DNA from: Syntrophaceae bacterium UBA7520
Lineage (GTDB): Bacteria > Desulfobacterota > Syntrophia > Syntrophales > Smithellaceae
Reading direction: 5' to 3'
Length of the DNA: 64,000 nucleotides
Assembly: GCA_002478265.1 (NCBI GenBank)
Contig: DLNC01000010.1
Coordinates: forward strand, 7,986-71,985
A program made the translations under genes and the position numbers. The notes under the pieces are model-generated. The model was not told the DNA's origin and searched no databases. It saw only the letters and a list, made by a program, of their open reading frames with translations. Within the stretch, counting starts at the first letter, position 1; every line of letters starts with the position of its first letter. Positions 1 through 63,514 of this stretch are shown here, in pieces.

Positions 1-1605
1 CAGCCGCAAAACATTGTTTTTCCTGATGTTGAGCACCCGGAGATGATGCCGGCGATGCTCTCGCCGAAATTACTGGAAGAAATTTACGCCGGTAAGGAAG
101 TGTCTACTGTAGAAACAACTAATACTGGAGAAACAATAGTGGGAGTGGCGCCGGTATTTTCCTACGCCGTGCCCTCAGAGGTCATCGGCCGTATTTCCGT
201 GAATTACAATGTTCCTAAGGGGTTTGCGGAAAAATTAAGAAGCATTGCTGATGCCACGCAACAGTACGGTCAAATCAATATTTTAAAAAATCCCATAAAA
301 TTCAGCTATATATTAACGATGTCTATTGTCACGCTCATCATTATCTTTTTAGCCACCTGGTTTGGATTAACGCTGGCGGGCGGCATCACCGGTCCTATTC
401 AAAATCTTGCCAAAGCGACAAACAAAATCATCCAGGGTGATTTGGATATTCAGATTGATGTTGAGGCGGATGATGAAATAGGCCTCTTGGTAAAATCATT
501 TAATAAGATGACAAAAGATTTGAAAAAAAGCAAAGATGGTCTGCTGCAGGCAAACATAAGCCTGGAACAACGCCGTAAATATATCGAAACGATTTTAAGC
601 AATGTCTCCGTGGGGATTATCTCGCTGGATAAAGACGGCGTTATCACAACGATAAACCAGGCCGCAGAAAAAATGCTCGATATTAAAACAGAGAATGTTT
701 TATTCCGCAATTTTCGCGAATTAATGGTATCGGAGCATCTCATTCGCATTGAGGAATTTTTAAAGGAAATAAACGAAACGCAGGAAGGCGTGTTGCAAAA
801 ACAGGTGGAGCTGATATTCAAAGACAGGGCTCTTACCGTTCTTCTTACGCTTACCGTAATTAAGGAGGAAGAAGGCAAAGACGCTGGTATGGTCGTCATT
901 TTTGAGGATCTAACGCAATTACAGAGGGCGGAAAGAGCGGCGGCGTGGCGTGAAGTCGCCCGGAGAATGGCGCATGAAATAAAAAATCCGCTTACACCGG
1001 TGCAACTCTCCGCACAGAGGCTGCAGAAAAAATACGGCGACAAGCTTGGCGAAGAGGGTTCTGTTTTTAAAGAATGCACGCAGACGATTATTGACCAGGT
1101 CGATGTGCTTAAAAATCTGGTAAATGAATTTTCGCAATACGCGCGAATGCCCGTAACGACGCCATCGGTCAACGACCTGAATGAAGTTGTGGCCGAATCC
1201 GTTTTCCTTTTTCAGGACGCTCATAAAGATATAGAGTTTATTCTCAATAAAGCGATAAGTTTACCGAAATTCGAGTTTGATGCGCAGCAGATGAATCGCG
1301 TATTGATAAATCTTCTGGATAATGCGGTGGCGGCAATCGACGGCAGGGGAGGGAAAATTGAAATAACCATGAATTATGATGAGCAGACGCGCAAGGTTTT
1401 TGTTGCTGTTGCCGACGATGGCGAAGGTGTTCCGGCAAGCCATAAGGGAAAAATGTTTGAGCCTTATTTTTCGACAAAAAAATCCGGTACCGGTTTGGGG
1501 CTGGCCATTGTGAACTCGATCATCTCTGATCATCGCGGTCAGGTGACTGTCGCGGATAATTATCCGCGCGGAACAGTGATTTCATTTTATTTGCCGGTTG
1601 CCTGA
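1..1605 (+). CDS. Sensor histidine kinase, NtrY-like (5' end outside window)
   Basis: Frame 1 is open from nt 1 (no upstream stop), so the gene is 5'-truncated by the window edge. Has a TM segment, HAMP-like linker, PAS region, H-box HEIKNPLTPVQLSAQRL and ATPase G-box GTGLGLAIV. Confidence 0.85.
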   Translation, partial: QPQNIVFPDVEHPEMMPAMLSPKLLEEIYAGKEVSTVETTNTGETIVGVAPVFSYAVPSEVIGRISVNYNVPKGFAEKLRSIADATQQYGQINILKNPIKFSYILTMSIVTLIIIFLATWFGLTLAGGITGPIQNLAKATNKIIQGDLDIQIDVEADDEIGLLVKSFNKMTKDLKKSKDGLLQANISLEQRRKYIETILSNVSVGIISLDKDGVITTINQAAEKMLDIKTENVLFRNFRELMVSEHLIRIEEFLKEINETQEGVLQKQVELIFKDRALTVLLTLTVIKEEEGKDAGMVVIFEDLTQLQRAERAAAWREVARRMAHEIKNPLTPVQLSAQRLQKKYGDKLGEEGSVFKECTQTIIDQVDVLKNLVNEFSQYARMPVTTPSVNDLNEVVAESVFLFQDAHKDIEFILNKAISLPKFEFDAQQMNRVLINLLDNAVAAIDGRGGKIEITMNYDEQTRKVFVAVADDGEGVPASHKGKMFEPYFSTKKSGTGLGLAIVNSIISDHRGQVTVADNYPRGTVISFYLPVA

Positions 1606-1668
1606 GATAAGATAAATATTTAGTAAATAGTCATTGATAATATATTTAAAATTAAATACTTATAAAGC

Positions 1669-3048
1669 ATGAAAGAAAATATCCTCATTGTTGACGATGA
1701 AGAAAGCATCTGCCAGACGCTAAAAGGAATTTTGAGCGATGAAGGCTATAATGTGCTGGTGGCAGGCAGCGGTGAAGACGCGCTCAAAATAATGGAGGAC
1801 GAACTGCCGCACCTTGTCATGCTGGACATCTGGCTTCCCGGTATTGACGGTTTGGAAACACTAAAAAGGATTAAGGCGCAGTATCCTGACGTGATGGTTA
1901 TCATGATGTCGGGGCACGGCACGATTGAAACGGCGGTGAAAGCCACAAAATTAGGCGCCTTTGATTTTATCGAAAAACCACTTTCGCTGGAAAAAGTGAT
2001 AATCTTAATCAACAACGCGCTAAACGTTTTGCGCCTGGAAGCGGAAAACGTCATGCTGAAACAAAAGATAGCGCATCAGTATGAGCTAACCGGTGTAAGC
2101 AAACAGATAACGGAACTCAAAGAAATGATCAGCATCGTTGCCCCGACCAACGCCTGGATTCTCATTATGGGAGAAAACGGCACGGGCAAGGAACTGGTGG
2201 CGCGATCCATACACCACTTAAGCCATCGAGCGCATAAGCCGATTGTGGAAGTGAATTGCGCGGCGATTCCCGAAGAACTGATTGAAAGTGAATTATTCGG
2301 GCACGAAAAGGGAGCTTTTACCGGCGCAACGGAAAAAAAACGCGGAAAATTCGACCTGGCTCACGAAGGCACGATTTTTTTGGATGAAGTGGCCGACATG
2401 AGTCTGAAAGCGCAGGCAAAAATTCTGCGCATACTGCAGGAGAAGAAATTTGAAAGAGTGGGAGGCAACAAACTCATCGATATGGACGTGCGTGTGTTGG
2501 CCGCGACAAACAAAGATTTGGAAAAGGAAATGGAAGCCGGGCGCTTTCGCCAGGATCTTTATTACCGCCTGCACGTCATCCCTCTTTATGTGCCAGCACT
2601 AAGGGAAAGAAAGGAAGACATCAGGCCACTGGCGGAAAAATTTTTGCAGGACGCAGCGGAAAAAGAAGGCGAAGATCCTAAAATATTGACGGATGAAGCA
2701 CTGGCGGTGCTTATGGAACATGATTGGCCCGGTAACGTCCGAGAGCTGAAAAATATTATCGAAAGATTGGTTATCCTAACACCAGCCAGAGAAATCACGG
2801 CAAATGATATTCCGCCACTTCAGGTCAGGGATTTTGGCAAAACACCTTTTGTTATGGAAGATAATATCTCGCTGAATTTCATCAGTAATTCCCTGAAGGA
2901 CGCAAAACTGGATTTTGAAAGGCAGTTTATTCTAAAGAAACTTGAGGAAAACGAAGGCAACATTTCTAAGACCGCCGAAGCAATTGGGCTCGAGCGAAGC
3001 AATTTGCACAAAAAACTCAGAAGCATGAAATTAGTTGTGAAAGAGTAA
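1669..3048 (+). CDS. Sigma54-dependent response regulator (NtrC/NtrX/AtoC family)
   Basis: N-terminal receiver domain, AAA+ Walker A GENGTGKE, intact GAFTGA sigma54-contact motif and a C-terminal Fis-type HTH. Lies directly downstream of the kinase. Confidence 0.9.
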   Translation: MKENILIVDDEESICQTLKGILSDEGYNVLVAGSGEDALKIMEDELPHLVMLDIWLPGIDGLETLKRIKAQYPDVMVIMMSGHGTIETAVKATKLGAFDFIEKPLSLEKVIILINNALNVLRLEAENVMLKQKIAHQYELTGVSKQITELKEMISIVAPTNAWILIMGENGTGKELVARSIHHLSHRAHKPIVEVNCAAIPEELIESELFGHEKGAFTGATEKKRGKFDLAHEGTIFLDEVADMSLKAQAKILRILQEKKFERVGGNKLIDMDVRVLAATNKDLEKEMEAGRFRQDLYYRLHVIPLYVPALRERKEDIRPLAEKFLQDAAEKEGEDPKILTDEALAVLMEHDWPGNVRELKNIIERLVILTPAREITANDIPPLQVRDFGKTPFVMEDNISLNFISNSLKDAKLDFERQFILKKLEENEGNISKTAEAIGLERSNLHKKLRSMKLVVKE

Positions 3049-39400: not shown

Positions 39401-42400
39401 TCATCTGATTATTTTTCTGTTAATGGCGATATTTTCCGTTCCTTCTCTTTCGACCATGGTATGGGCCTCCGCGCCGCTTTTAAAGCGCAAAACATTGAGC
39501 ATAAATATTTCCAGTTTGCTCAAGACATTGGGCGGCAGCAAATTGCCGTCAATTTCTATGGATATTGTTGGGTATCTGTTTTCTCTGGCCCACGGGGTGA
39601 ATAATCCTTCTATCACCCGGCCAATCAGACAGGCGAAAGGAGAAATATTAACGATGCCCGAATAGCCGTCCATCATTGCGGTGGCGGCAACGCCGCTGGA
39701 GATGCTGATTTCCGAATAAAGCTCGTGACTAACAAAATGTTTTTGCGTGTTGGCCATTATTTTTTGCATATCGTGCGGGGAGGAGGGAATCAAACCAGTA
39801 ACGCCGAGCGCAGAGCGCACATTTTTTTCCACTTTGTTTTTATACATTTGTTCGATGTTCCAGTTAATTAAATCCATGAACTCCGAAGCAAAGACGCGGC
39901 GATACCAGGGAATAAGTCCCAATCTTTTTTTCAGATCGTGATGGCGTACGAAATCGCAGTAGTAAATCCATTCGGCGACATTAGAAATTTTACCGATAAT
40001 GCCGCGGCGGCTGAAATGCTGAATTAGTTCCTCGACAGCAAAATCGTCTCTTCTTACATAAATTTCACCAACAATCAGCACTTTCGGACACTGCTCAATC
40101 GATTTTTTAAGAGGAATGCTGGAAATTTCCGCTGCGATTTCTTTTAGAGTGGGCAGAACTTGTGTAATATCTTTTTCCGCCACGTCAATCATTTTATGCC
40201 ACAAATCATCGTAAATTTTCATGGCGGAAACCGGGTCGGCGGCACAAGTGCGCAGCGATGTTTCCACGTCTTTCATGTAATCGCCGATAATCACCGCCCA
40301 CCAGGCGTGCTTGGAAAACTCCGCGCCCAGCTCATTGTAGGAGTTATCCGAATCCAGCGTGAAGACCAGGACGTTTTCCAGGCGTAGATCACGGAAAAGA
40401 TTTTCATAAAAAACAAAATACTGGCCGGTGCGGCAGGGCCCCGTCGTGGTCGGAACAAAGAGAATATATATTTCATCTTTGCGGTATTTATCGGAGGAAA
40501 GGTATTTAAGGGCGCTGCCTAATACCAGATGTGAGGGCAGGCATTCTTTTCCCGATGCGTGGTTGCGCGCCATTTGCAGCGTGTAGATATCCGGGACAGG
40601 CATGGTTTCGGCGTTGATGCCCAGGCCGCGGATGGTCGCACCAATCAGTTCCGCGGAAAGCCGTCCCATGTTGGAAAGCAAAAGTTTAACCCGTGGATTG
40701 TCTTTCACGGGTATCTTTTCACCCGTATGAATATTGGCGATATAAATATCTTCGGCGCGGTTATTGATGAACCTCAAGCCGTTATCATATCTTTCTTCGC
40801 GAAGGGAGGAGATTTTCGCGCGGTACCCCTCAATGATATCAAGAAAAGCCTCAATGCGCGTATCCACGCCGGCATCCGCGGTGTGTGAATCAAGTTCCAG
40901 AATAAGAAAAGGCTTGGTTCCCATCATCCATTTTAGATAGTGCAGCATGAATGAATCCGGCGCGCAGGAGAAATTGGAAATATAGGTGATAAAAATATTG
41001 TCTTCTTTCTTTAAAAACGCGCCCGCTTTCATGTCCTGCTGGCCGTAATACCAGTACATATTGGGATAAATCGTTTCATCAGTGAAAGGCAAAATATCGA
41101 AAGGAACAACGCTATAGCCGCGGGTGCTAAATTTGCGTGGAATGCCCATGTTGGCATCAGTGGTGAAAGCGTTGTAGGGTCGACCAAGAATGGCGATAAC
41201 CGGCCGCTGCGAGAGGCGCGCCTGCGTGATCGCGGTTTTACCCAGTTCGGAAAACTTTTTGAAGCATTCCATCTGCTTTTCATAAGCCTCGAAGAATGCT
41301 TTTCTGGCGTCTCTTTCACTGAAGCCTAATTGCAGCGCCATTTCCATGAAGGGCTCTGCGGCCTTTTCTTTGCCGTACATAAAACTGACCACCGGGGCCA
41401 AATATTTGCTGTCCGGGATTTCCGGAAAGGCCTTTTTAATGTAATAGGGAAGGGCCTGTGTTATCGGGCAGAAGTTAGCCGGTGTTTCCTCTTCGTAGCT
41501 TTCCATATCGCGGAAATGCGGCAGAAAAATGTAATCGGGGTTTCTGTCAAAAATATCCTGAACGGCGCCATGTGCTATTTCCGCAGGGAAGCAGTAACTG
41601 CTTTCCACCCGCGCGGTGCCTTCGCCGGAAATGTTTTTGGAAACAACAGTTTCCACGCCCAGGTTATAAAAAAACCAGCTGTAAAGCGGCCATAAAGTGT
41701 AGAAGGAAAAACAACGCGGAATTCCGACCACAACATCTTTTTTCCTGACAAAAGTTTCTGGATCCGGCGCGCATTCCTCGAAAAGTATTTCATTGCGCTT
41801 TTCGATATAGTCGAACACTTCATTTTCATTGATAGTTTTTTTCTTGCGAATGTTGGCGTACTTGTTACAGCGACCTCCGAACATGTATTTATGATTATTG
41901 ACATTGAGAATTCTGATCGGGCAGAAATTGTCACAGGCTTTGCAGATAAACTCTTTCTCATAAATAATGTTGGTCGCCAAAATGTTGTCTATATCAAAAG
42001 AACTTTTGACCAAAAATCCTTCTTGGAGCTTTTGCCTCGCTAGAATTCCGACGCCGAAGCAGCCCATCAGTTCCGGATCGGGCGGAACGAGAATGTCTTT
42101 ATTGAGCAGCATGGCAAAAGCGAGCGGGACGGCTTTGTTTTTCGCGACTCCTCCCTGTAAAACGATATTTTGCCCGATCGTCCTGTTCCCCACGACTCTG
42201 TTGAGATAATTGGAGACGATGGAGGTGACGATTCCGGCGGTAATGTCTTCACGTGATGCTCCCTGCTGGATGGCGTTGCGGATGTCAGAATTAATAAAAG
42301 CGGAACAGTGCTCGCCGAATTTTAAAGGCGCTTGGGCGGCTATAGCGATATCGCCGATTTCTTCAGCGCGCGCGATATTCAAATCTCCCTGCGCCGATTC

Positions 42401-43717
42401 CTCGAGAAATGAACCTGTTCCGGCGGAGCAGGCTTCATTCATGGCGTAATCAATTGGCACCTTGTTTTTCAGGAATACATATTTGGCGTCTTGTCCGCCG
42501 ATTTCGAATATCGTGTCGATATCTTCACGGTAAAATGTAGTGCCGACGGCATGGGCGATAATTTCATTGTAAACAGCGGGTGTTTCCAAGAAAACGCCCA
42601 AAATTTCGCGCGACGAGCCGGTGGTGGCGGCCAGGGTTATGCTTATTTTCCCATCGCCAATATCTTCACTAATTTGTTTTTTAATTTCGCTCAGGCAAAA
42701 TTTAAGAGCAGCCACCGGGTCGCCGTGCGTGCGACCGTAATAGGAAGCGGTGATTTCATTTGTTTCGATATCAATCAGACATGCTTTAGTTGTTGTGGAA
42801 CCTCCGTCCACGCCTAAAATGTATTCTCGTCCCGCGACAACCTTGCCTTTCTGAGAAGGAAGATACGTCACCCGGCCGACGGCGCTTTTCAGATTATTAA
42901 ACCGTTTAAATTGAATGCGGCTTTTTTTAAAAAGAGAGTTCAGCGGCGGCAGGATGCTGCCGGATTTTCTGGCTAAAAGAGCCGCGCCGTACGCTTCGAA
43001 AAACGGCGACTGAGCGGGTATGATCAGTTCAATTTCCGGCAGTCTCTGGCGGATAAAACGGATAATGTGCGGATTCTGGGTAACGCCGCCCACCAGCATG
43101 ATTTTGCCGCTGCTAATTCTGGCGCGCTTGAGGAAATCAATAACTTTGATGGCCATGACATCGCTGAGAGATAAAACGATATCCCCCTTGGTGGCTTCCC
43201 CCTTGTTCAGGCGGTGTGTGCAGTCGCTTTTCATGAAAACGGAACAACGAGAGGAAAGCTTGAAGACACAGCAATTATCTTCGAGCGAGTTGATGTCACC
43301 AAGCTTCATGTTCATTCGGGCCAGCTGCTGCTTGAAAAATTCTCCCGTGCCGGAGGCGCATTTATTGCCGGAAAAGCTGTTGATAATTTTTTTGTTCTTA
43401 TCAATGGTGTAAACAACAAGGTCTTCGCCGCCGAGAGAAACCACAGCATCGATGTTTTGATTGAGGCGTTCAAGCGCCTCCTCGATGCAAAGCGGTTCGA
43501 TCACGCTGTTTATATTTAGCAGGCGGCGGCCTTCCGTGCCGGTAGCCAGCGATTTTACATCGGCGGGCAAGGGATGTAAGGATAATATATTTTTTAAAGT
43601 GTGTAGAAAATTGCCTTCATGCGGCTCGACAGCGCTCCATAATATATTATTGCCTTCCAGCATGGTCGCTTTAACGTTGGAAGAGCCGATATTGATTCCT
43701 AAGCTATACATTTCCAC
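39401..43717 (-). CDS. Giant fusion: two BcrAD/BadFG-type activase ATPase domains plus DUF2229/2-hydroxyacyl-CoA-dehydratase-like Cys-rich modules
   Basis: aa 1-260 and about 300-560 each carry ASKHA phosphate loops (GINIGSSNVK; GVDGGSTTTK) and the activase cluster-Cys pair (NKCASGTGEF/SSRCSVFMKSD; NEACSAGTGSF/GEHCSAFINSD). The C-terminal ~870 aa has CxxCxxxC...C, GIPRCFSFYTLWP, NFCPITQ, NFSCAPDSF, ELDSHTADAG and TGPCRTGQY motifs. Confidence 0.85.
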   Translation of the reverse strand: MEMYSLGINIGSSNVKATMLEGNNILWSAVEPHEGNFLHTLKNILSLHPLPADVKSLATGTEGRRLLNINSVIEPLCIEEALERLNQNIDAVVSLGGEDLVVYTIDKNKKIINSFSGNKCASGTGEFFKQQLARMNMKLGDINSLEDNCCVFKLSSRCSVFMKSDCTHRLNKGEATKGDIVLSLSDVMAIKVIDFLKRARISSGKIMLVGGVTQNPHIIRFIRQRLPEIELIIPAQSPFFEAYGAALLARKSGSILPPLNSLFKKSRIQFKRFNNLKSAVGRVTYLPSQKGKVVAGREYILGVDGGSTTTKACLIDIETNEITASYYGRTHGDPVAALKFCLSEIKKQISEDIGDGKISITLAATTGSSREILGVFLETPAVYNEIIAHAVGTTFYREDIDTIFEIGGQDAKYVFLKNKVPIDYAMNEACSAGTGSFLEESAQGDLNIARAEEIGDIAIAAQAPLKFGEHCSAFINSDIRNAIQQGASREDITAGIVTSIVSNYLNRVVGNRTIGQNIVLQGGVAKNKAVPLAFAMLLNKDILVPPDPELMGCFGVGILARQKLQEGFLVKSSFDIDNILATNIIYEKEFICKACDNFCPIRILNVNNHKYMFGGRCNKYANIRKKKTINENEVFDYIEKRNEILFEECAPDPETFVRKKDVVVGIPRCFSFYTLWPLYSWFFYNLGVETVVSKNISGEGTARVESSYCFPAEIAHGAVQDIFDRNPDYIFLPHFRDMESYEEETPANFCPITQALPYYIKKAFPEIPDSKYLAPVVSFMYGKEKAAEPFMEMALQLGFSERDARKAFFEAYEKQMECFKKFSELGKTAITQARLSQRPVIAILGRPYNAFTTDANMGIPRKFSTRGYSVVPFDILPFTDETIYPNMYWYYGQQDMKAGAFLKKEDNIFITYISNFSCAPDSFMLHYLKWMMGTKPFLILELDSHTADAGVDTRIEAFLDIIEGYRAKISSLREERYDNGLRFINNRAEDIYIANIHTGEKIPVKDNPRVKLLLSNMGRLSAELIGATIRGLGINAETMPVPDIYTLQMARNHASGKECLPSHLVLGSALKYLSSDKYRKDEIYILFVPTTTGPCRTGQYFVFYENLFRDLRLENVLVFTLDSDNSYNELGAEFSKHAWWAVIIGDYMKDVETSLRTCAADPVSAMKIYDDLWHKMIDVAEKDITQVLPTLKEIAAEISSIPLKKSIEQCPKVLIVGEIYVRRDDFAVEELIQHFSRRGIIGKISNVAEWIYYCDFVRHHDLKKRLGLIPWYRRVFASEFMDLINWNIEQMYKNKVEKNVRSALGVTGLIPSSPHDMQKIMANTQKHFVSHELYSEISISSGVAATAMMDGYSGIVNISPFACLIGRVIEGLFTPWARENRYPTISIEIDGNLLPPNVLSKLEIFMLNVLRFKSGAEAHTMVEREGTENIAINRKIIR

Positions 43718-55294: not shown

Positions 55295-55746
55295 TTGACG
55301 GCGTGATTGTTAAAAAGCTTAGAGTAATTCCAGATGAGCGAGGCCGGCTGATGGAAATATTCCGGTCGGACGATGAATTTTTTCAGAAATTCGGTCAAGT
55401 TTATCTGACTACAGCTTATCCCGGCGTGGTCAAAGGCTGGCATTACCACAAAAAACAGGCTGACAATATGGCCGTGGTTCAGGGAATGATGAAAATAGTT
55501 TTATACGACAGCCGTAAAGATTCAACGACACACGGCCAGATAAATGAGATTTTTGCCGGTGTCCATAATCCTGTTTTAGTGCACATTCCGCCGCTGGTCT
55601 ATCATGGCTTTAAATGCATATCAAAAGAGGAAGCGCTGGTTATCAACACGCCCACGGAAGCATATAATTACGACGCGCCTGATGAATACCGCCTGCCGGC
55701 GCACGGCAGTGAAATTCCCTATGATTGGTCAAGAAAAGACAGCTGA
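55291..55746 (+). CDS. dTDP-4-dehydrorhamnose 3,5-epimerase-like cupin
   Basis: DERGRLMEIF and KGWHYH motifs. 151 aa. Overlaps the upstream gene by 4 nt. Confidence 0.7.
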   Translation: MIDGVIVKKLRVIPDERGRLMEIFRSDDEFFQKFGQVYLTTAYPGVVKGWHYHKKQADNMAVVQGMMKIVLYDSRKDSTTHGQINEIFAGVHNPVLVHIPPLVYHGFKCISKEEALVINTPTEAYNYDAPDEYRLPAHGSEIPYDWSRKDS

Positions 55747-55776
55747 AATCAGATAGTTATCGCGACAATAATATTC

Positions 55777-55804
55777 TTGACTTTAGGGGAAAAAAGAGTA
55801 AAAT
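55777..55804 (+). promoter_or_regulatory. Sigma70-type promoter driving the riboswitch-pilD transcript
   Basis: TTGACT (55777-55782), 16-nt spacer, TAAAAT (55799-55804). Confidence 0.6.
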
Positions 55805-55810
55805 TTTAAA

Positions 55811-55914
55811 CATCGAAAAGATGAGCAAACCGTTTGAAAAAACGGGGCGCAAAGTTACTGGCCTAAGTCTTGGGAAATGGGGGATAGGGCGGCAGAACTG
55901 CCGATAGTCACATC
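55811..55914 (+). promoter_or_regulatory. GEMM-I cyclic-dinucleotide riboswitch aptamer (A at the Vc2-G20-equivalent position, so GEMM-Ib-like)
   Basis: Blocks A-GCAAACC, hairpin CCGUUU-GAAA-AAACGG (55830-55845), GGCGCAAAG (55846-55854), CCUAAG receptor half (55862-55867), AUAGG and GCGG...CCGAU. Same order and spacing as the V. cholerae Vc2 aptamer as I remember it. Confidence 0.7.
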
Positions 55915-55966
55915 AGGTTTTCATTGAATCTCATCTGTCACCCTAAAAGATAATAACGGAAAAAAA

Positions 55967-56731
55967 ATGATGATTTGTAATTTTTTTGCCTTTATTTTTG
56001 GCGCGGTTGTGGGAAGTTTTCTCAACGTATGCATCTATCGCCTGCCGGATAAAACATCTATCATCAAACCGTTATCGCGTTGTCCACACTGTGAAAAGCC
56101 TATTCGTTTCTATGATAATATTCCGATTATCAGTTTTTTTATTTTAAAAGGCAAATGCCGTGATTGCGGCGGAAAAATTTCCTGGCGCTATCCGTTGGTG
56201 GAATTGCTCACGGGAATATTAGCTTTATTGCTTTTCTTGAAATTTGGCTTGAGTTTAAAATTTCTGGCCGCCTTTGTTTTCGCGGCGGCTCTGGTTGTTA
56301 TAACCTTTATTGACCTTGATCATAAGATTATTCCTGACATTATCACTTTGCCCGGGATTCCGATATTTCTTTTGGCGGGTATCTTTATCATGAAGGTTCC
56401 CTGGCCGGAAGCGCTTATCGGAGTTTTGGTGGGCGGCGGTGTGTTGTTTGCCATTGCCTTTGTATATGAAGCGCTTACCAAGCGAGAAGGAATGGGAGGA
56501 GGAGATATCAAGCTTTTGGGGATGATTGGCGGATTTTTCGGCTGGAAAGCGCTTATATTTATTTTACTGGCTAGTTCTTTGACCGGAGCGCTGATAGGAA
56601 TCGCTGCCATGATTATAAAAAAACAGGATATGAAATACGCCTTGCCTTTTGGCCCTTTTTTGGCCGCGGCGGCGATTGCTTATTTCTTCTGGGGAGACGC
56701 CTTCATGCGGTTTGTTTTTATGAGTTATTAG
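55967..56731 (+). CDS. pilD: Prepilin peptidase / N-methyltransferase (A24 family)
   Basis: N-terminal CPHC...CRDCG zinc motif, 8 TM helices and catalytic Asp regions (IDLDHKIIPD; GGGDIKLLGMIG). Confidence 0.9.
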   Translation: MMICNFFAFIFGAVVGSFLNVCIYRLPDKTSIIKPLSRCPHCEKPIRFYDNIPIISFFILKGKCRDCGGKISWRYPLVELLTGILALLLFLKFGLSLKFLAAFVFAAALVVITFIDLDHKIIPDIITLPGIPIFLLAGIFIMKVPWPEALIGVLVGGGVLFAIAFVYEALTKREGMGGGDIKLLGMIGGFFGWKALIFILLASSLTGALIGIAAMIIKKQDMKYALPFGPFLAAAAIAYFFWGDAFMRFVFMSY

Positions 56732-56889: not shown

Positions 56890-56919
56890 GATATTAAAAA
56901 CTAATTGACGGTGGAAGCT

Positions 56920-57396
56920 GTGAGAATCACCAAAAACAAAGGAATGACTTTAATCGAACTGATTATGGTGGTGGCCATTCTTGGTATTGTTTTGGCCATT
57001 GCTTCGCCGAATTTTATGCGCTATCGGCAGAACACAAATTTGCGAGAGACAGCGGAAGATTTCACGGCCCAAATTGCTCTTTACAGGCATAGAGCTATGG
57101 CAGAAGACATTAGATACAGGATTGCAATTAATCTGGCCGCTGGTGAATATTCGGTAGAAAGAAATCCATTGCCGGAAAACCCTGATGTATATGTTCCGCT
57201 GGTTCCTGCCGTGACAAAGAGATTCAACGAGTACAGTCCACAAATTACGCTTGTTTCCGCGCCGGTAAGTTTTGTCATGCAACCGAGAGGAACGCTCACT
57301 GCGGGGACGCTTACATTACAGCACAGCGGAACGCAGAGAAGAGCAATAATTATCACACATTTATCCGGAAGAGTGAATTTGCGATATGAAGATTAA
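56920..57396 (+). CDS. Type IV minor pilin / pseudopilin, GspH/FimT-like
   Basis: Prepilin leader MRITKNKG followed by MTLIELIMVVAILGIV (cleavage/methylation motif with E5). The alternative upstream TTG at 56905 is in frame. Confidence 0.7.
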   Translation: MRITKNKGMTLIELIMVVAILGIVLAIASPNFMRYRQNTNLRETAEDFTAQIALYRHRAMAEDIRYRIAINLAAGEYSVERNPLPENPDVYVPLVPAVTKRFNEYSPQITLVSAPVSFVMQPRGTLTAGTLTLQHSGTQRRAIIITHLSGRVNLRYED

Positions 57397-57802
57397 CAAT
57401 GAAAAAGGCATCACCATTGTCGAAGCGCTGATTGCTTTTTTCCTCACATTCGTTGCTATCGCCTGGCTGATGCCGATGCAGAGCACTTCTTTAAACACCG
57501 GCTTCCGGGCCGATTATCTTGGGCGCGCAACCTATATTATGCAGACGGAATTGGAAACGAGAGAATATATGATAATGAATCCTAATATACCCGTTGCGGT
57601 GGGCACTTTCCCACAAGTAATTACCGCAAGCGGTACAATGGGAGGACCGGAAGGCGACGCGGTGTTTGATGTTGTCACAACAATAACGCCTGTTGCCGGC
57701 ACGACAAATTCCTGGCTGGTGAATGTCCGTGTCAGATGGGCGCGCGGACCGGCAAACGGCATCACCAGCTCGATTATCGCCACACGGCATTTCAATTTTT
57801 GA
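57386..57802 (+). CDS. Type IV minor pilin, PilV-like
   Basis: Leader MKINNEKG followed by ITIVEALIAFF. 138 aa. Overlaps the upstream gene by 11 nt. Confidence 0.65.
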   Translation: MKINNEKGITIVEALIAFFLTFVAIAWLMPMQSTSLNTGFRADYLGRATYIMQTELETREYMIMNPNIPVAVGTFPQVITASGTMGGPEGDAVFDVVTTITPVAGTTNSWLVNVRVRWARGPANGITSSIIATRHFNF

Positions 57803-57807
57803 TTTTT

Positions 57808-58611
57808 ATGCGTAAAATTTTAAAAAAGAAAAAAAATGGTTTTACATTAGTTGAGCTGCTGATTGCAATTCTGGTGGGCGGGCTGGTCATGCTTGCGGTT
57901 TACATGGCCATGGTCATGTCCCAGCGCACGTCGGCTGGCGTGGGCAGAAAAGTTATCACGCAGCAGGACACGCGCGCGGTGCTGGATATCATGGCCTCAG
58001 AAATAGCGATGGCTTCATTCAATCCGCTGGTGCAGCCGACAACATGGACAGGCGATAGTATAGTGAATTTGAACAATTGTGGCATTCCGGTTGTCGTGGC
58101 CAATCCCTTAAATAAGGGCATTTTCATTGCTGATGCCAACAATATGTATATTGCCATGGATTTAAACGCAGATGGCGTTATCGGTTGCGCTTGCGCCAAT
58201 CCTGCTGACTGCTCTAATGATGTACCCTGCGCCGGACAAAATGAATTTATATTGTACTCATATAATCCAGCGATCAGGGCAATCACACGCCGCGTTTCTT
58301 GCGGTCAACCTGTATCTATATTAGGTAATACTGCGCTAGGTAGTAATGTTATAAATCAAGATGCGGGAATTCCCCTGTTTCAATATTTTGACCGCTTTGG
58401 GCAGCCCTTGCCTTTGCCGATAAATATACCGGCAGTAAGGCGCGTTAAGGTAACCATTGTGGCGGAAACCGCGGATATTGACCTTAATACAAGACAACGT
58501 AAAAGAATGATTTATTCCACGGATGTTATAGTGAGAAACCATGCAGCTTTTTCGCCGAATACTGGAGCAGGGGGAGCAGGGGGAGGAGGTGTAGTTGTTG
58601 TTGGACCATAG
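57808..58611 (+). CDS. Type IV minor pilin, PilW-like
   Basis: Start set at ATG 57808. Leader MRKILKKKKNG followed by FTLVELLIAILVGG. Gly-rich C-terminal tail. Confidence 0.65.
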   Translation: MRKILKKKKNGFTLVELLIAILVGGLVMLAVYMAMVMSQRTSAGVGRKVITQQDTRAVLDIMASEIAMASFNPLVQPTTWTGDSIVNLNNCGIPVVVANPLNKGIFIADANNMYIAMDLNADGVIGCACANPADCSNDVPCAGQNEFILYSYNPAIRAITRRVSCGQPVSILGNTALGSNVINQDAGIPLFQYFDRFGQPLPLPINIPAVRRVKVTIVAETADIDLNTRQRKRMIYSTDVIVRNHAAFSPNTGAGGAGGGGVVVVGP

Positions 58612-59068
58612 CAAAAAGAAACTTGCGTCACAGGACGGCTTTGTTCTCGTCGCGGCGATTATGGCGCTGATGATTTTTATCGCGGTCGGCTTTTATGCTT
58701 TGACGGTCACCACGCAGGATCTGCGCGTCAGCGCCAGGCTCGTCGGCGAAAGAAAAGCTTTTTCCGCGGCCGAAGCCGGAGTTAGTGTGATAAGCAGAAC
58801 ATTGAATCCCACATCTCCATCTACGCCTATAATAGGGCAAAAAGTAGACCCGGTGAATGACCCTAAGGCGGAATTTGACGCGACTGCTTTAGTGCAAGAC
58901 ACAAACATTCCAGATATGTGGTTTCCCGGCTTCAGCCCCTCGCAACGTTCCGCTGTATTTCGCTCAACCGTTACCGGCAGGGATACCGCCTATGGTTCGC
59001 GCGTGAGACTTTCCGTGGGCATTGCCAGCGCGCCTGTCTCCACAGGAACAGAGCAGGGGCCGTTTTAA
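58595..59068 (+). CDS. PilX-like pilus assembly protein (PilX N-terminal domain)
   Basis: TTG start 5 nt after GGGAGGAGG. DG/FVLVAAIMALMIFIAVGF hydrophobic N-terminus without E5, as in PilX-type proteins. Confidence 0.55.
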   Translation: MLLDHSKKKLASQDGFVLVAAIMALMIFIAVGFYALTVTTQDLRVSARLVGERKAFSAAEAGVSVISRTLNPTSPSTPIIGQKVDPVNDPKAEFDATALVQDTNIPDMWFPGFSPSQRSAVFRSTVTGRDTAYGSRVRLSVGIASAPVSTGTEQGPF

Positions 59069-59299: not shown

Positions 59300-62200
59300 A
59301 TGCAAAGCAACAAGATTATTTTACGCTTTGTCTGTATAATTACGCTGGTAATTTTTCTTGCACTGCCGGGATTTGTCCGGGCGGATGACCCGGAACTGCC
59401 GCCGGACAATGACGAGCAGGATACCTTTGCCGATGTGAGTCCCGACGCGCTCATCGTGCTGGATTTATCCGGTTCGATGCTCTGGACGCCGGCAGGAAGT
59501 AAAATGTATGTCCAGAGCGCCCAAAGTTGTTTGGGGAGTGGCGTTCCTCATTATGCAACGCAGGGTTCAGGAATGAAGCTATGTACAATTGATCCCTATG
59601 GAACAGTGCCTAAATATTCAAATTCGTCTTGTTCGGGCCCGTTTTACACGACGGCACAGACCGGTTATGCCACCAACTGCTCCCGCGTCGCGATCGCCAA
59701 AAGGGCGCTTTTTGCCGTGCTGGATGACAACAGCGACGGTAAAGTGGATAAATACGATGCTGAAACCCTCGGCATCAGAATAGGGTATATGCGTTTCCGC
59801 GGCGGCAATGACACGGGAGGTGATTACGCCTCCGGCAACAATCAGTTGATTAAGGAAATAAGCAAGCTTGGTTCCATGACCGGCACGTCTTATCAGTATA
59901 CTTATTGCGGTAAGACCGGTTCTACATCTTCGTGTATTATTACTGATACCTGCAGCGCGAACGTTAACTGCATCGCGCGTTCCGAAGCAGAAGCCACCGG
60001 AGGTACGCCGCTGGTTTATTCGCTCAAGGAAGCAAAAAAATATTTTGATATACATAAAGATAGAGACCCGGCCAAGGAATGCCGTCAGAAATTTGTTATT
60101 TTTGTATCCGACGGCGCGGATACATATGTTTGCGATGGCGGAGGGGCGGAATGCCAAACGCACATGTATAAACGCCGTAGGGAAAGCGTGGCAGCCGCCA
60201 AAGCGCTGGCTGACGCCGGTTATCGTGTGTTTGTTGTCGGATTCGGCGCCGACATGCCCGCTTATTTAAAGAACACGCTCGAGTGGATGGCTTATTACGG
60301 CGGCACAAACAACCCGCGCGTTCCTGACAGCGGCAATACGCAATCATATAACTTGCCGGTAGGTTGCAACTCCGAACCGCCCGTTGCTGGTGCTTGTTGT
60401 ATCTTTCCCGCCAGCGCCACCGGCGCGTCAACTACTCCGGCTGCCTGCTATCCGGATGGGATGTCATCATGCGCAGATTTACCGGCAACATCCGATACTG
60501 CCTATTGTACAGAAACAAGCTCTCCAACCTTCAGGACAACCACCGCGGGTACAGATCCCGGTTACGAAACGCTCAGCGGCTATGCGTTTCTGGCGCAGGA
60601 TGGTGATGAATTAACGGCGGCATTAAAGAGCGCTATTTCCACCATCCGTGAAACCACTTATTCTTTCACGCAGGCATCGATTCAGGCTATCCGCACGGCT
60701 GATGAAAATTTCATTTATGAGGCGTCTTTTGAACCGGTAAGTTTTTGTCCCTTCTGGCTTGGTTATCTAAAAAGGTATAACTTGGATGCGGCCGGTAACC
60801 TCATCGTCCCTACCAACTGGGACGCGGGAGCGGTTTTGTCCAACCAAAGCGCCAGCGGCAGAAATATGTTTACCTTAATCGGAAACGCCCGAGAGGAATT
60901 TAGCGTATTTAATTCGAGCATTACCGAGGCCCACTTGAATGCCAATTCTTCCACGGAAAGAAACATGATTATCAATTATTTCCGTGGTGGCGAAAAGATT
61001 TCCGAAGATCCTTTAAAATATTGGCGTTTGGGGGATATCTTCCATTCTTCGCCTCTGTCTATCGCTACGCCCAATTTGCTCTTCTACGATCGGTGGGATA
61101 AAAGCTATCCAAAAGCATATAACGAATTTCGTGACGATCATATCCGCACGTCGGCCAATGGCAAACGCCTGATGATTGTGGGCGCCAATGACGGCCAGCT
61201 CCATGCTTTTCGCACGGGAGAGCTGGGTGATGGCGGTGGTACGGAAATGTGGAGCTTTATCCCGCCTAACCAGTTACGTCGGCTTAAACTAATTGCCCAT
61301 CCTTCACACCCGACTTCCTTAGTGCGTCAGTATTATGTGGATGGGCCGACCAGCGCCGCCGAAATTTGGATAAAGAACGGCGCGGCGACAACTATTGATA
61401 ATACCTATAAGTCAAAAGAAGAATGGATGACTTTATTAGTGACCTCGCAGGGCCGCGGCGGCATGACCACGCTATGGAGTTCATCGACCGGCTGTGATTC
61501 CGGTTTCAGTCCCGATTATACGACGACCTATAATAATTATTGCGGTTATTACGCCTTTGACATTAGCGATACGGCAAGTCTCCCTATTTACAAATGGCGT
61601 ATCGGCGGTAATGCCGGATTAACGGCGCTGCACGGCAAGCACCTGGCTCAGCCCTGGAGCAAGATGACTATGGGGCGTGTGCGCATTAACAATACGGAAA
61701 GATGGGTAGGATTGATCGGCGGCGGATATTCCGGCTGCGGACGTGTTGTCGGACAATGCGATGAGCGCGGCAAATCCTTTTATGTCATCGATTTAAAGGA
61801 CGGTTCAATTCTCTGGACGTATAATTACGCGACCGACGCGACGATGAATTATGATCTTGTAGCTGGGCCCACGGCCGTGGATTCCGACAATGACGGTTTT
61901 TGGGATACGGCTTATGTCGGCGATTTGGGTGGCAACATCTGGCGGTTTAAATTCTGCACAAAAACTGAAGCGGAAGCAACGGGAGGTTGCGGCATTGCCA
62001 ATTGGAGCGGGAAAAAATTGCTGAATGAACCTGCGCAATCGACCATCAGGCCTATTTACACTTCTGTAACTGTGGCGGTTGACCCGGAATTTAATCTGTG
62101 GGTTTATGTTGGAACAGGAGACAAGACTAATCCCACCGCCCCCAATGCCCAGGAAAGGTTGTACGCGATTAAGGACGCCGATCGGACGAGTACTTACACC

Positions 62201-62647
62201 ATAGCGGATCTGCTGAATTTAGGTTCCTCCGGCGTGTATGACCCCAATGATCCGGGCGGACAGATTGGCTGGTATATTACTTTTTCCGGGTCGGAGAAAG
62301 TATTGGCGGAACCGGTTGTTTATCAAGGAAACGTTTATTTTACCACTTATGTGCCGAACAAAGGTGGCTCAGATCCCTGTAATACGGCCGGGCAGGCATT
62401 GGTTTATAATCTGGATTATATAACCGGCGCGGGGCAATGGGAAGGTGGAGCCAGATCGATCAGTTTAGGAGAGGGCAGCGGTGTGCCGTCAGCGGTGGTT
62501 GTGTCTGTCAGTCCCGAAGGAGATGTAAATCTTTATGTTTCAACCAGTGTGGCCAGAGGTGGGGCGCATGGAACGCCAATAGCGGATCCAAGCCTACAGC
62601 CGGCTTCAGGCAGTTTAATTTACTGGCAGGATATGCGTATTCGCTGA
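59300..62647 (+). CDS. pilY1: PilY1-like type IV pilus tip adhesin with N-terminal von Willebrand A domain
   Basis: Signal peptide and vWA MIDAS motif (VLDLSGSM, GGTPL, FVSDGADT). C-terminal PilY1 beta-propeller motifs (GANDGQLHAF, DSDNDGFWDTAYVGDLGGNIWRF). 1115 aa. Confidence 0.85.
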   Translation: MQSNKIILRFVCIITLVIFLALPGFVRADDPELPPDNDEQDTFADVSPDALIVLDLSGSMLWTPAGSKMYVQSAQSCLGSGVPHYATQGSGMKLCTIDPYGTVPKYSNSSCSGPFYTTAQTGYATNCSRVAIAKRALFAVLDDNSDGKVDKYDAETLGIRIGYMRFRGGNDTGGDYASGNNQLIKEISKLGSMTGTSYQYTYCGKTGSTSSCIITDTCSANVNCIARSEAEATGGTPLVYSLKEAKKYFDIHKDRDPAKECRQKFVIFVSDGADTYVCDGGGAECQTHMYKRRRESVAAAKALADAGYRVFVVGFGADMPAYLKNTLEWMAYYGGTNNPRVPDSGNTQSYNLPVGCNSEPPVAGACCIFPASATGASTTPAACYPDGMSSCADLPATSDTAYCTETSSPTFRTTTAGTDPGYETLSGYAFLAQDGDELTAALKSAISTIRETTYSFTQASIQAIRTADENFIYEASFEPVSFCPFWLGYLKRYNLDAAGNLIVPTNWDAGAVLSNQSASGRNMFTLIGNAREEFSVFNSSITEAHLNANSSTERNMIINYFRGGEKISEDPLKYWRLGDIFHSSPLSIATPNLLFYDRWDKSYPKAYNEFRDDHIRTSANGKRLMIVGANDGQLHAFRTGELGDGGGTEMWSFIPPNQLRRLKLIAHPSHPTSLVRQYYVDGPTSAAEIWIKNGAATTIDNTYKSKEEWMTLLVTSQGRGGMTTLWSSSTGCDSGFSPDYTTTYNNYCGYYAFDISDTASLPIYKWRIGGNAGLTALHGKHLAQPWSKMTMGRVRINNTERWVGLIGGGYSGCGRVVGQCDERGKSFYVIDLKDGSILWTYNYATDATMNYDLVAGPTAVDSDNDGFWDTAYVGDLGGNIWRFKFCTKTEAEATGGCGIANWSGKKLLNEPAQSTIRPIYTSVTVAVDPEFNLWVYVGTGDKTNPTAPNAQERLYAIKDADRTSTYTIADLLNLGSSGVYDPNDPGGQIGWYITFSGSEKVLAEPVVYQGNVYFTTYVPNKGGSDPCNTAGQALVYNLDYITGAGQWEGGARSISLGEGSGVPSAVVVSVSPEGDVNLYVSTSVARGGAHGTPIADPSLQPASGSLIYWQDMRIR

Positions 62648-62944: not shown

Positions 62945-63514
62945 TTAGTAAATATATTTGCTGATAGTATTATCCTCGTCAAAAACAACGGCCACGTGCT
63001 TGCGGTGAAATTCGTCGTCCCATCGGCGCAGAATTTTTCCTTCCACGCAAACTTCTGCCTCATCAAACTGAAACTTCAGGTTGACGTTAGTGCCAATCTT
63101 AACGGAATGATCAGCTTCATACATAATCAGGTGGGCGCCGTTGCTGGAAATATCCACGACCTGGGTTTCTTTTTTCTGGCATCTGACGCGGACTTTCGGC
63201 AGCAGGTTTTTTTTGATCCGCGGCCAGCGGCGCAACTCGCACGGCGCCGGATCGTTTAATTTGTAAAGTATCAGCCGTCCTTCGGCGGTAATGGCTTTTA
63301 TTCGGGCTTCGAAACCGATTCGGCCGGTTTTCCCGTCGTCGATAAAATAAGTAACAAAAATAATCTCGTTCAAGTGTTCTTGGGTTATGGCAGGTTTAGT
63401 CTGGTCTACTGAAATATATTCGTTGGGAAGCTGTTGCTGAAAGCGGGAAATTCTGATCTCTTTCTTGTTTAAGATAAGGTATATTTTTTGTTCAGGTCGT
63501 ATATTCAGATGCAT
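62945..63514 (-). CDS. PilZ-domain protein (YcgR-like two-domain c-di-GMP receptor)
   Basis: C-terminal RRxxxR-type motif (LRRWPRIK) and DxSxxG (DISSNGAHL) at the correct spacing for a PilZ domain. Confidence 0.7.
   Translation of the reverse strand: MHLNIRPEQKIYLILNKKEIRISRFQQQLPNEYISVDQTKPAITQEHLNEIIFVTYFIDDGKTGRIGFEARIKAITAEGRLILYKLNDPAPCELRRWPRIKKNLLPKVRVRCQKKETQVVDISSNGAHLIMYEADHSVKIGTNVNLKFQFDEAEVCVEGKILRRWDDEFHRKHVAVVFDEDNTISKYIY

Follow-up and report, generated by a model that had tools for sequence, protein, structure and literature searches.

Published aptamers of the GEMM-I riboswitch family (c-di-GMP-I in Rfam) bear directly on what an adenine at the specificity position does to ligand choice. 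Wild-type Vc2 of Vibrio cholerae, which has G at this position (G20), binds cyclic di-GMP (c-di-GMP) with a picomolar dissociation constant (Kd), whereas for the G20A mutant the value is in the tens of nM. The mutant is bispecific, with a Kd of 53 nM for c-di-GMP and 120 nM for cyclic GMP-AMP (cGAMP), because its adenine becomes protonated on binding of c-di-GMP (PMC6140456). For Cbe 1-2, an A20 aptamer that occurs in nature, the values are 30 nM for c-di-GMP and 463 nM for cGAMP (PMC6140456). The GEMM-Ib type is defined by A at the equivalent of Vc2 G20 (A14 in Gs1761) together with a C retained at the equivalent of C92 (PMC6140456). Selectivity in the Geobacter riboswitches rests on more than A20, and mutations in lower P2 also affect it (PMC9262584).

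Here we describe a GEMM-I riboswitch with A at this position, located ahead of the prepilin peptidase gene pilD in a 64,000-nucleotide (nt) stretch of DNA from Syntrophaceae bacterium UBA7520 (contig DLNC01000010.1), which we call the window. The host is a Smithella-like member of the Smithellaceae from a hydrocarbon metagenome, in which the window belongs to a contig of 93 kb. We consider it fairly probable that this RNA is a functional riboswitch of an operon comprising pilD, minor-pilin genes and pilY1, and that its A20 marks a relaxed-specificity, lower-affinity c-di-GMP variant rather than a dedicated cGAMP sensor.

We searched all 64,000 nt of the window for Rfam 15 families, applying the gathering thresholds. 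The sole match was RF01051 (c-di-GMP-I, GEMM-I) at 55814-55905 on the forward strand, which spans model positions 1-87 of 87 and scores 69.8 bits (E 1.3e-11), far over the gathering score of 35. The original prediction, made from the sequence before this analysis, had placed a GEMM-I riboswitch ahead of pilD, and the match bears this out. The P2 hairpin, CGCAAAG, CCUAAG and A55824 that it described all hold in the sequence and in the RF01051 alignment. The aptamer is made up as follows.

55812-55905, forward strand: GEMM-I aptamer including P1, from the RF01051 match at 55814-55905 and structural support in 38 orthologs.
55812-55815, forward strand: 5' strand of P1, AUCG, partner of CGAU at 55902-55905; read from the sequence, P1 being outside the Rfam model.
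55816-55824, forward strand: junction J1/2, AAAAGAUGA, 9 nt, ending in the specificity base A55824; from the alignments.
55825-55850, forward strand: P2, with base pairs G55825-C55850 and C55826-G55849; from the RF01051 alignment.
55830-55835 and 55840-55845, forward strand: P2 stem CCGUUU/AAACGG, with a GAAA tetraloop at 55836-55839; from the RF01051 alignment.
55851, forward strand: A equivalent to Vc2 A47, the first A of CGCAAAG; from the RF01051 alignment.
55853-55899, forward strand: P3, with the CCUAAG tetraloop-receptor half at 55860-55865 and the 3' side GGAUAGGG at 55882-55889; from the alignments.
55901, forward strand: C equivalent to Vc2 C92, the first C of the 3' CCGA and Watson-Crick partner of one ligand guanine; from the RF01051 alignment.

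This structure is conserved. We aligned 38 distinct RF01051-type aptamers with MAFFT; the Rfam structure is paired in 97.1% of the cells of this alignment, compared with 37-49% in controls in which the 3' partners were slid by 1-3 columns. Compensatory changes occur in five pairs, and none of 500 shuffles reached the observed covariation score; within the P2 stem, three of the six pairs show such changes. P1, which is 4 base pairs (bp) long in the window, has support of the same kind, in that GCUUG/CGGGC in most orthologs becomes (C)AUCG/CGAU(G) in the window's clade, with compensation at two P1 positions. The nucleotides of the pocket and the tertiary contact (GAAA, CCUAAG, A55851 and C55901) are all present and are invariant or nearly so in the orthologs: CGCAAAG does not vary across the 38 sequences, and the CC at the C92 equivalent is likewise invariant. 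We take the role of A47, and presumably of A55851, to be intercalation between the two ligand bases. Membership in the GEMM-I family is secure, and by its structure this is a real, conserved riboswitch.

A55824 falls on RF01051 model position 11, where the consensus is G, directly 5' of the pairs G55825-C55850 and C55826-G55849. We equated this position with Vc2 G20 by our own numbering of Vc2, for which the place of A47 served as a check. An A at the specificity position had been proposed from the sequence, and the covariance alignment agrees, putting A55824 in the G20 column and C55901 at C92; these two nucleotides give the window the GEMM-Ib pocket composition. The same sequence, with A, is found in three independent assemblies (ENA ERZ922794, Logan SRR5325125 and JGI 3300002733), and the base is therefore no assembly error. 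The JGI sequence, a 93-kb contig (codie8draft_1000821; L086) from a separate metagenome, has this locus too, and its riboswitch is identical. It represents an independent sampling of the same strain or a very close one, with gene calls slightly different from those of the window (253 rather than 254 amino acids for pilD, 147 rather than 151 for the rfbC-like gene).

To follow position 20 through the family, we drew PilD relatives from one-genome-per-species contigs; the closest are metagenome-assembled genomes of Smithellaceae or Syntrophaceae, many of them labelled Smithella. A pattern search of the 80 fetched loci found a GEMM-I core some 150 nt ahead of pilD in 40 of them, to which Rfam added two more (L009 and L023). 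Counting the window together with 42 Smithellaceae genome loci, 39 of the 43 have G at position 20; the four with A are the window, L003, L005 and L006. These four form one clade in a neighbour-joining tree of PilD, with the G20 locus L014 as sister and L023, also G20, outside. L004 lies within the same clade, its upstream region being cut off.

Scanning JGI metagenomes for the A20 form yielded three further loci. One (L083) is like L005. The other two (L084:1107-1193 and L085:223-309) combine A20 with a 6-nt junction, AAAAAA, and belong to another Smithellaceae subclade. Their PilD proteins and leaders nest among the G20 genomes L032, L025, L019 and L021, the nearest PilD being those of L032 and L025, so A20 arose at least twice in one orthologous riboswitch. 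The distribution suggests that A20 is a derived state, a recent and recurrent variant of a c-di-GMP riboswitch whose ancestral base was G20. Leaving aside the P2 and P3 hairpin loops, the conserved core of the window departs from that of L014 at position 20 and in the preceding junction, and nowhere else. So far as these data go, the window RNA is thus a natural equivalent of Vc2 G20A rather than of the Geobacter GEMM-Ib aptamers.

A second Rfam family occurs at this locus. In three Smithella genomes (L037:3843-3922, L053:3849-3929 and L039) the best match to the pilD leader is RF03167 (c-di-GMP-I-GGC), at 62.7-64 bits; P3 is shortened in these leaders, and the CCUAAG receptor is missing. Among related genomes, the pilD locus is thus taken up by two families of one clan.

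The junction preceding A20 varies as well. J1/2 measures 9 nt in the window and in L003, where the same nine nucleotides stand at L003:3849-3857; it is 6 nt long in L005, L006 and most orthologs, and 7 nt long (AAAAGAG) in L014 and L023. The A20 of L005 and L006 could have come about without a substitution, if an AAAAGAG junction lost one G. Aligned to RF01051 without gaps, the window places a U on a highly conserved consensus A, but if GAU is bulged out the conserved AA-G-A is kept. The extra bases make possible a local hairpin, CAUC-GAAAA-GAUG at 55811-55823 (-3.3 kcal/mol in the window, -1.6 kcal/mol in L003, absent in L014 and L005), which competes with P1 in the folding model.

How does this RNA compare with the described systems? 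With Vc2 it shares RF01051 membership, the three-helix architecture, GAAA with a CCUAAG-type receptor, CGCAAAG with A47, C92, and G-C followed by C-G at the base of P2. It differs from Vc2 in its host, a Smithella-like member of the Syntrophales, and in its place upstream of pilD and a minor-pilin operon. Its pocket composition equals that of Vc2 G20A, although its A is natural and not engineered, and it has a 9-nt J1/2, a 4-bp P1 and no terminator. Cbe 1-2, from Clostridium beijerinckii, is a natural A20 aptamer outside Geobacter that is described as bispecific, and we regard it as the best precedent for the window RNA, although it comes from a Firmicute with another gene context and is likened here by binding data, not by sequence.

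Geobacter has many GEMM-Ib riboswitches as well as the Hypr GGDEF enzyme GacA. The aptamers of Gs1761/pgcA and G. metallireducens pilM share with the window the A at the specificity position, the C at the Watson-Crick position, the fold, the Rfam family and a site upstream of pilus-related genes (pilM in Geobacter). The base of P2 is different. In Gs1761, A14 is followed by the pair C15-G40 (PMC6274999), and the pilM aptamer (...AAUA-CU-AAACC...GACGG-AAAG) has C14-G39 and then U15-G38 (PMC9262584). P2 of these aptamers starts with C-G (then U-G in pilM) and their junction reads CGGAAAG, whereas the window has G-C, C-G and CGCAAAG; a C-G pair beside the specificity A is thus present in the two Geobacter aptamers compared and missing from the window, where G55825-C55850 takes its place. 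The pilM aptamer has a GCGA loop and lacks the CCUAAG receptor, unlike the window with its GAAA and CCUAAG. The Geobacter switches turn on through an intrinsic terminator (PMC9262584), and the window leader is without one.

Direct control of type IV pilus genes by a cyclic-dinucleotide riboswitch is shared with Clostridioides difficile. There, a class II riboswitch (c-di-GMP-II) stands before pilA1, the gene for the major pilin, and works as a terminator-based ON switch; both the riboswitch class and the pilus gene differ from those of the pilD operon in the window.

From these comparisons we infer the ligand preference. By analogy with the A20 aptamers that have been measured, the most likely effect of A20 is a relaxed specificity that admits both c-di-GMP and 3',3'-cGAMP, at a lowered affinity for c-di-GMP; neither Vc2 G20A nor Cbe 1-2 binds cGAMP better than c-di-GMP. 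A sensor dedicated to cGAMP is probably not the result, and c-di-GMP most likely remains the physiological signal. Relaxed specificity is also the more economical reading because of the G20 ancestry, the recurrent G-to-A toggle, the Vc2-like P2 base and a neighbouring PilZ gene, described below. The suggestion in the original prediction that the riboswitch might be of cGAMP type finds no support in the comparisons made here, given G20 in 39 of the 43 orthologs, a core as in L014, a P2 base as in Vc2, and A20 precedents that bind c-di-GMP.

Several points weigh against the reading that we prefer. Only two Geobacter sequences underlie the P2-base signature, and C-G is not established as required for selectivity. 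Hypr GGDEF enzymes, which have Ser (GacA S348) where PleD has D344, are found in several lineages of deltaproteobacteria. The three extra nucleotides of J1/2 in the window and L003 may bear on the predicted binding pocket. P1 stability is reported to influence selectivity, and natural weak P1 stems have been suggested to favour cGAMP selectivity; P1 of the window, with its 4 bp, is short and weak. At least four genomes of the clade, distinct at species level and with PilD only about 84% identical, keep the A, so that A20 is at least tolerated and may be selected. Finally, Geobacter A20 GEMM-I riboswitches that stand before pilus-assembly genes serve cGAMP signalling (PMC6456294).

Some of these points also speak for a genuinely cGAMP-selective GEMM-Ib riboswitch, by which the A20 clade would have re-wired the pilD operon to 3',3'-cGAMP from a Hypr GGDEF or similar enzyme, in parallel to Geobacter. 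The pocket composition of A20 with retained C92 is that of a cGAMP riboswitch, persistence of the A across a whole clade and its repeated origin could reflect selection, and pilus assembly is under cGAMP riboswitches in Geobacter too. We nevertheless think this unlikely: a single G20A change gives bispecific aptamers and the natural A20 aptamer Cbe 1-2 prefers c-di-GMP, the C-G pair seen beside the specificity A in both compared Geobacter aptamers is missing, and the core of the closest G20 ortholog, L014, differs only at position 20. Moreover, we found no GGDEF gene in the window or the fetched Smithellaceae loci, and a canonical c-di-GMP-type PilZ gene adjoins the operon. The evolutionary scenario that would go with it, in which the change at position 20 made a 3',3'-cGAMP sensor out of the ancestral c-di-GMP riboswitch in an alkane-degrading syntrophic sublineage of the Smithellaceae, strikes us as somewhat less probable again. 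If true, it would put the prepilin peptidase, minor pilins and PilY1 under cGAMP signalling, and it would be an independent, recent second origin of riboswitch cGAMP signalling outside Geobacter, with ancestral G20 and derived A20 orthologs both extant.

It is tempting to see in the recurrence of the G-to-A toggle in one orthologous riboswitch the tuning of affinity within pure c-di-GMP signalling, with G20A selected to weaken very tight binding and so to shift threshold or kinetics, and with no role for cGAMP. The drop from a picomolar Kd in wild-type Vc2 to tens of nM in G20A would fit, and riboswitch sensitivity tuned to cellular cyclic-dinucleotide levels has been proposed earlier (PMC9262584). 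However, sequence cannot separate such tuning from near-neutral drift, and the proposal overlaps with relaxed specificity; as an explanation of its own we give it only a small chance. That the aptamer is decaying or non-functional, with A20 and the 3-nt J1/2 insertion having disabled sensing in the window lineage and left the leader constitutive, is very improbable. The 9-nt instead of 6-nt J1/2, the U on a highly conserved consensus A in the ungapped alignment and the 4-bp P1 could be read as signs of decay, but no helix and no other conserved nucleotide is lost, and the window scores 69.8 bits against 69.3 for the G20 locus L014. In addition, the identical junction is found in L003, a different species, and L005, L006, L083, L084 and L085 are A20 with the canonical 6-nt junction.

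We infer the switching helices and the output from the leader that surrounds the aptamer, whose further elements are these.

55777-55804, forward strand: sigma-70-type promoter, with -35 TTGACT at 55777-55782, a 16-nt spacer and -10 TAAAAT at 55799-55804; 10 of 12 consensus positions.
55912-55945, forward strand: candidate anti-aptamer segment (AUC.GGU ... UCUGUC.CCCUA), complementary to 55885-55889, 55891-55896 and 55900-55905; suggested by folding and duplex energy.
55958-55969, forward strand: weak Shine-Dalgarno GGA at 55958-55960, an A run and the pilD ATG at 55967; from the sequence.

Promoter, aptamer and pilD ATG follow each other on one strand, an arrangement kept in orthologs. The TTGACT-16 nt-TAAAAT promoter noticed in the first reading of the sequence is present, and both hexamers are kept in the four closest orthologs, L003, L005, L006 and L014 (in L014 the -10 is TAGAAT); sequences like TTGACT...TAnAAT are visible in most orthologs. 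The transcript is expected to start about 7 nt past the -10 element, just 5' of P1. A 60-amino-acid open reading frame at 55725-55907 was considered as a coding candidate and rejected: it spans the aptamer, and ortholog indels in this region are not multiples of three. The claim that the RNA explains this frame away is upheld on the same grounds, and the 220-nt gap before pilD, together with the spurious frame, can be re-labelled as a riboswitch.

The minimum free energy fold of the free leader (-37.3 kcal/mol) is an alternative fold; with the aptamer enforced, the energy is -29.8 kcal/mol. In the free fold, a 5' hairpin forms and the 3' half of the aptamer (55885-55889, 55891-55896 and 55900-55905) pairs with 55912-55918 and 55934-55945. 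The duplex energy between the aptamer 3' half and the downstream leader of the window is -18.5 kcal/mol compared with -14.1 kcal/mol in dinucleotide shuffles (z -1.5). The z-score for this complementarity is below zero in 38 of 38 orthologs, with a mean of -1.9 and 20 values below -1.64, and because the sequences are related these 38 scores are not independent tests. RNAalifold on 15 G20 orthologs gave a conserved alternative helix that sequesters the 3' strand of P1, with almost no covariation (term 0.03).

The window leader has no intrinsic terminator, as had been supposed, nor is there a U-tract after the conserved alternative hairpin of the G20 orthologs; output would therefore lie at translation initiation or another terminator-independent step. 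Occlusion of the Shine-Dalgarno region showed no consistent direction across the 38 orthologs, with a mean unpaired probability of 0.50 when the aptamer is sequestered and 0.52 when the leader is free (Wilcoxon p 0.71). For the window alone, modelled accessibility of the ribosome-binding region is 0.61 with the aptamer formed versus 0.91 without this constraint, which hints at an OFF switch; we do not rely on it. Participation of CAUC at 55911-55914 in alternative pairings is plausible in the folding model. Its pairing with GAUG at 55820-55823 alongside P1 was rejected: the two would cross and cannot form together as nested helices, and GAUG pairs more simply with the local CAUC at 55811-55814.

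Taken as a mechanism, transcription would begin at the conserved sigma-70 promoter and the ligand would bind the three-way junction via A55824, A55851 and C55901. Binding would stabilise P1 (55812-55815 with 55902-55905) and the aptamer fold, which would compete with the small 5' hairpin and with pairing of the aptamer 3' half to 55912-55945, and the outcome would be read out at translation initiation or at another step that needs no terminator.

Downstream of the leader lie the genes that the riboswitch would control.

55967-56731, forward strand: pilD, prepilin peptidase, with A24_N_bact and Peptidase_A24 domain matches.
56905-59068, forward strand: four minor-pilin-like genes with the N_methyl motif and GspH/FimT-like and PilX_N domains, from domain matches.
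59300-62647, forward strand: pilY1-like gene, 1115 amino acids, with a PilY1 beta-propeller domain match.

The pilY1-like gene is probably the last gene of the regulated operon. Upstream of the riboswitch are rfbA-like and rfbC-like genes, and the rest of the window holds housekeeping genes. Just after pilY1, and convergent with it, a 189-amino-acid PilZ-domain protein is encoded at 62945-63514 on the reverse strand, with both of its c-di-GMP-binding motifs, RRWPR (RxxxR) and DISSNG (DxSxxG), intact. Because a PilZ gene with intact motifs adjoins pilY1, c-di-GMP signalling is tied to the pilus locus, and the PilZ protein may provide a second, protein-level c-di-GMP input there.

Other signalling genes lie farther off. 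About 9 kb past the 3' end of the window, on the same contig, is a fusion of a response-regulator receiver to an HD-GYP phosphodiesterase domain (IHDIGK ... HHERLDGSGYP; L087:437-1546). HD-GYP enzymes degrade c-di-GMP, and some degrade cGAMP. A HAMP-PAS histidine kinase and, after it, a sigma-54-dependent response regulator (Rec, AAA+ and Fis-type helix-turn-helix) are encoded at 43-3048 on the forward strand, at a distance of 53 kb from the pilus operon; their domain pattern is that of PilS/PilR-like pairs. A motif search of the window found no GGDEF, and the fetched Smithellaceae loci contain no GGDEF genes of any type; the one canonical GGDEF among the 82 loci L001-L082 is in a Desulfobacterales locus. 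Two EAL-like motif matches in the window proved to be PriA helicase and a BadF/BcrA-type activase. A literature search found no paper linking Hypr GGDEF to the Syntrophales. Unrelated to the riboswitch, a 1438-amino-acid fusion at 39401-43717 on the reverse strand joins two BadF/BcrA-type ATPase domains to DUF2229 (CoA-enzyme activase), a combination typical of anaerobic syntrophs.

Judged from the sequence, the genes for type IV pilus processing and for the tip and minor pilins of Smithella-like syntrophs would be under direct cyclic-dinucleotide control, which matters for aggregation and for contact with partners during methanogenic degradation of hydrocarbons. The locus also offers a natural series of orthologs that differ essentially at the specificity base, with G20 in L014 and A20 in the window, L005 and L084. 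Such a series bears on whether a single change from G to A in nature is neutral, a tuning of affinity or the start of a switch to another ligand, the question raised by the GEMM-Ib riboswitches of Geobacter.

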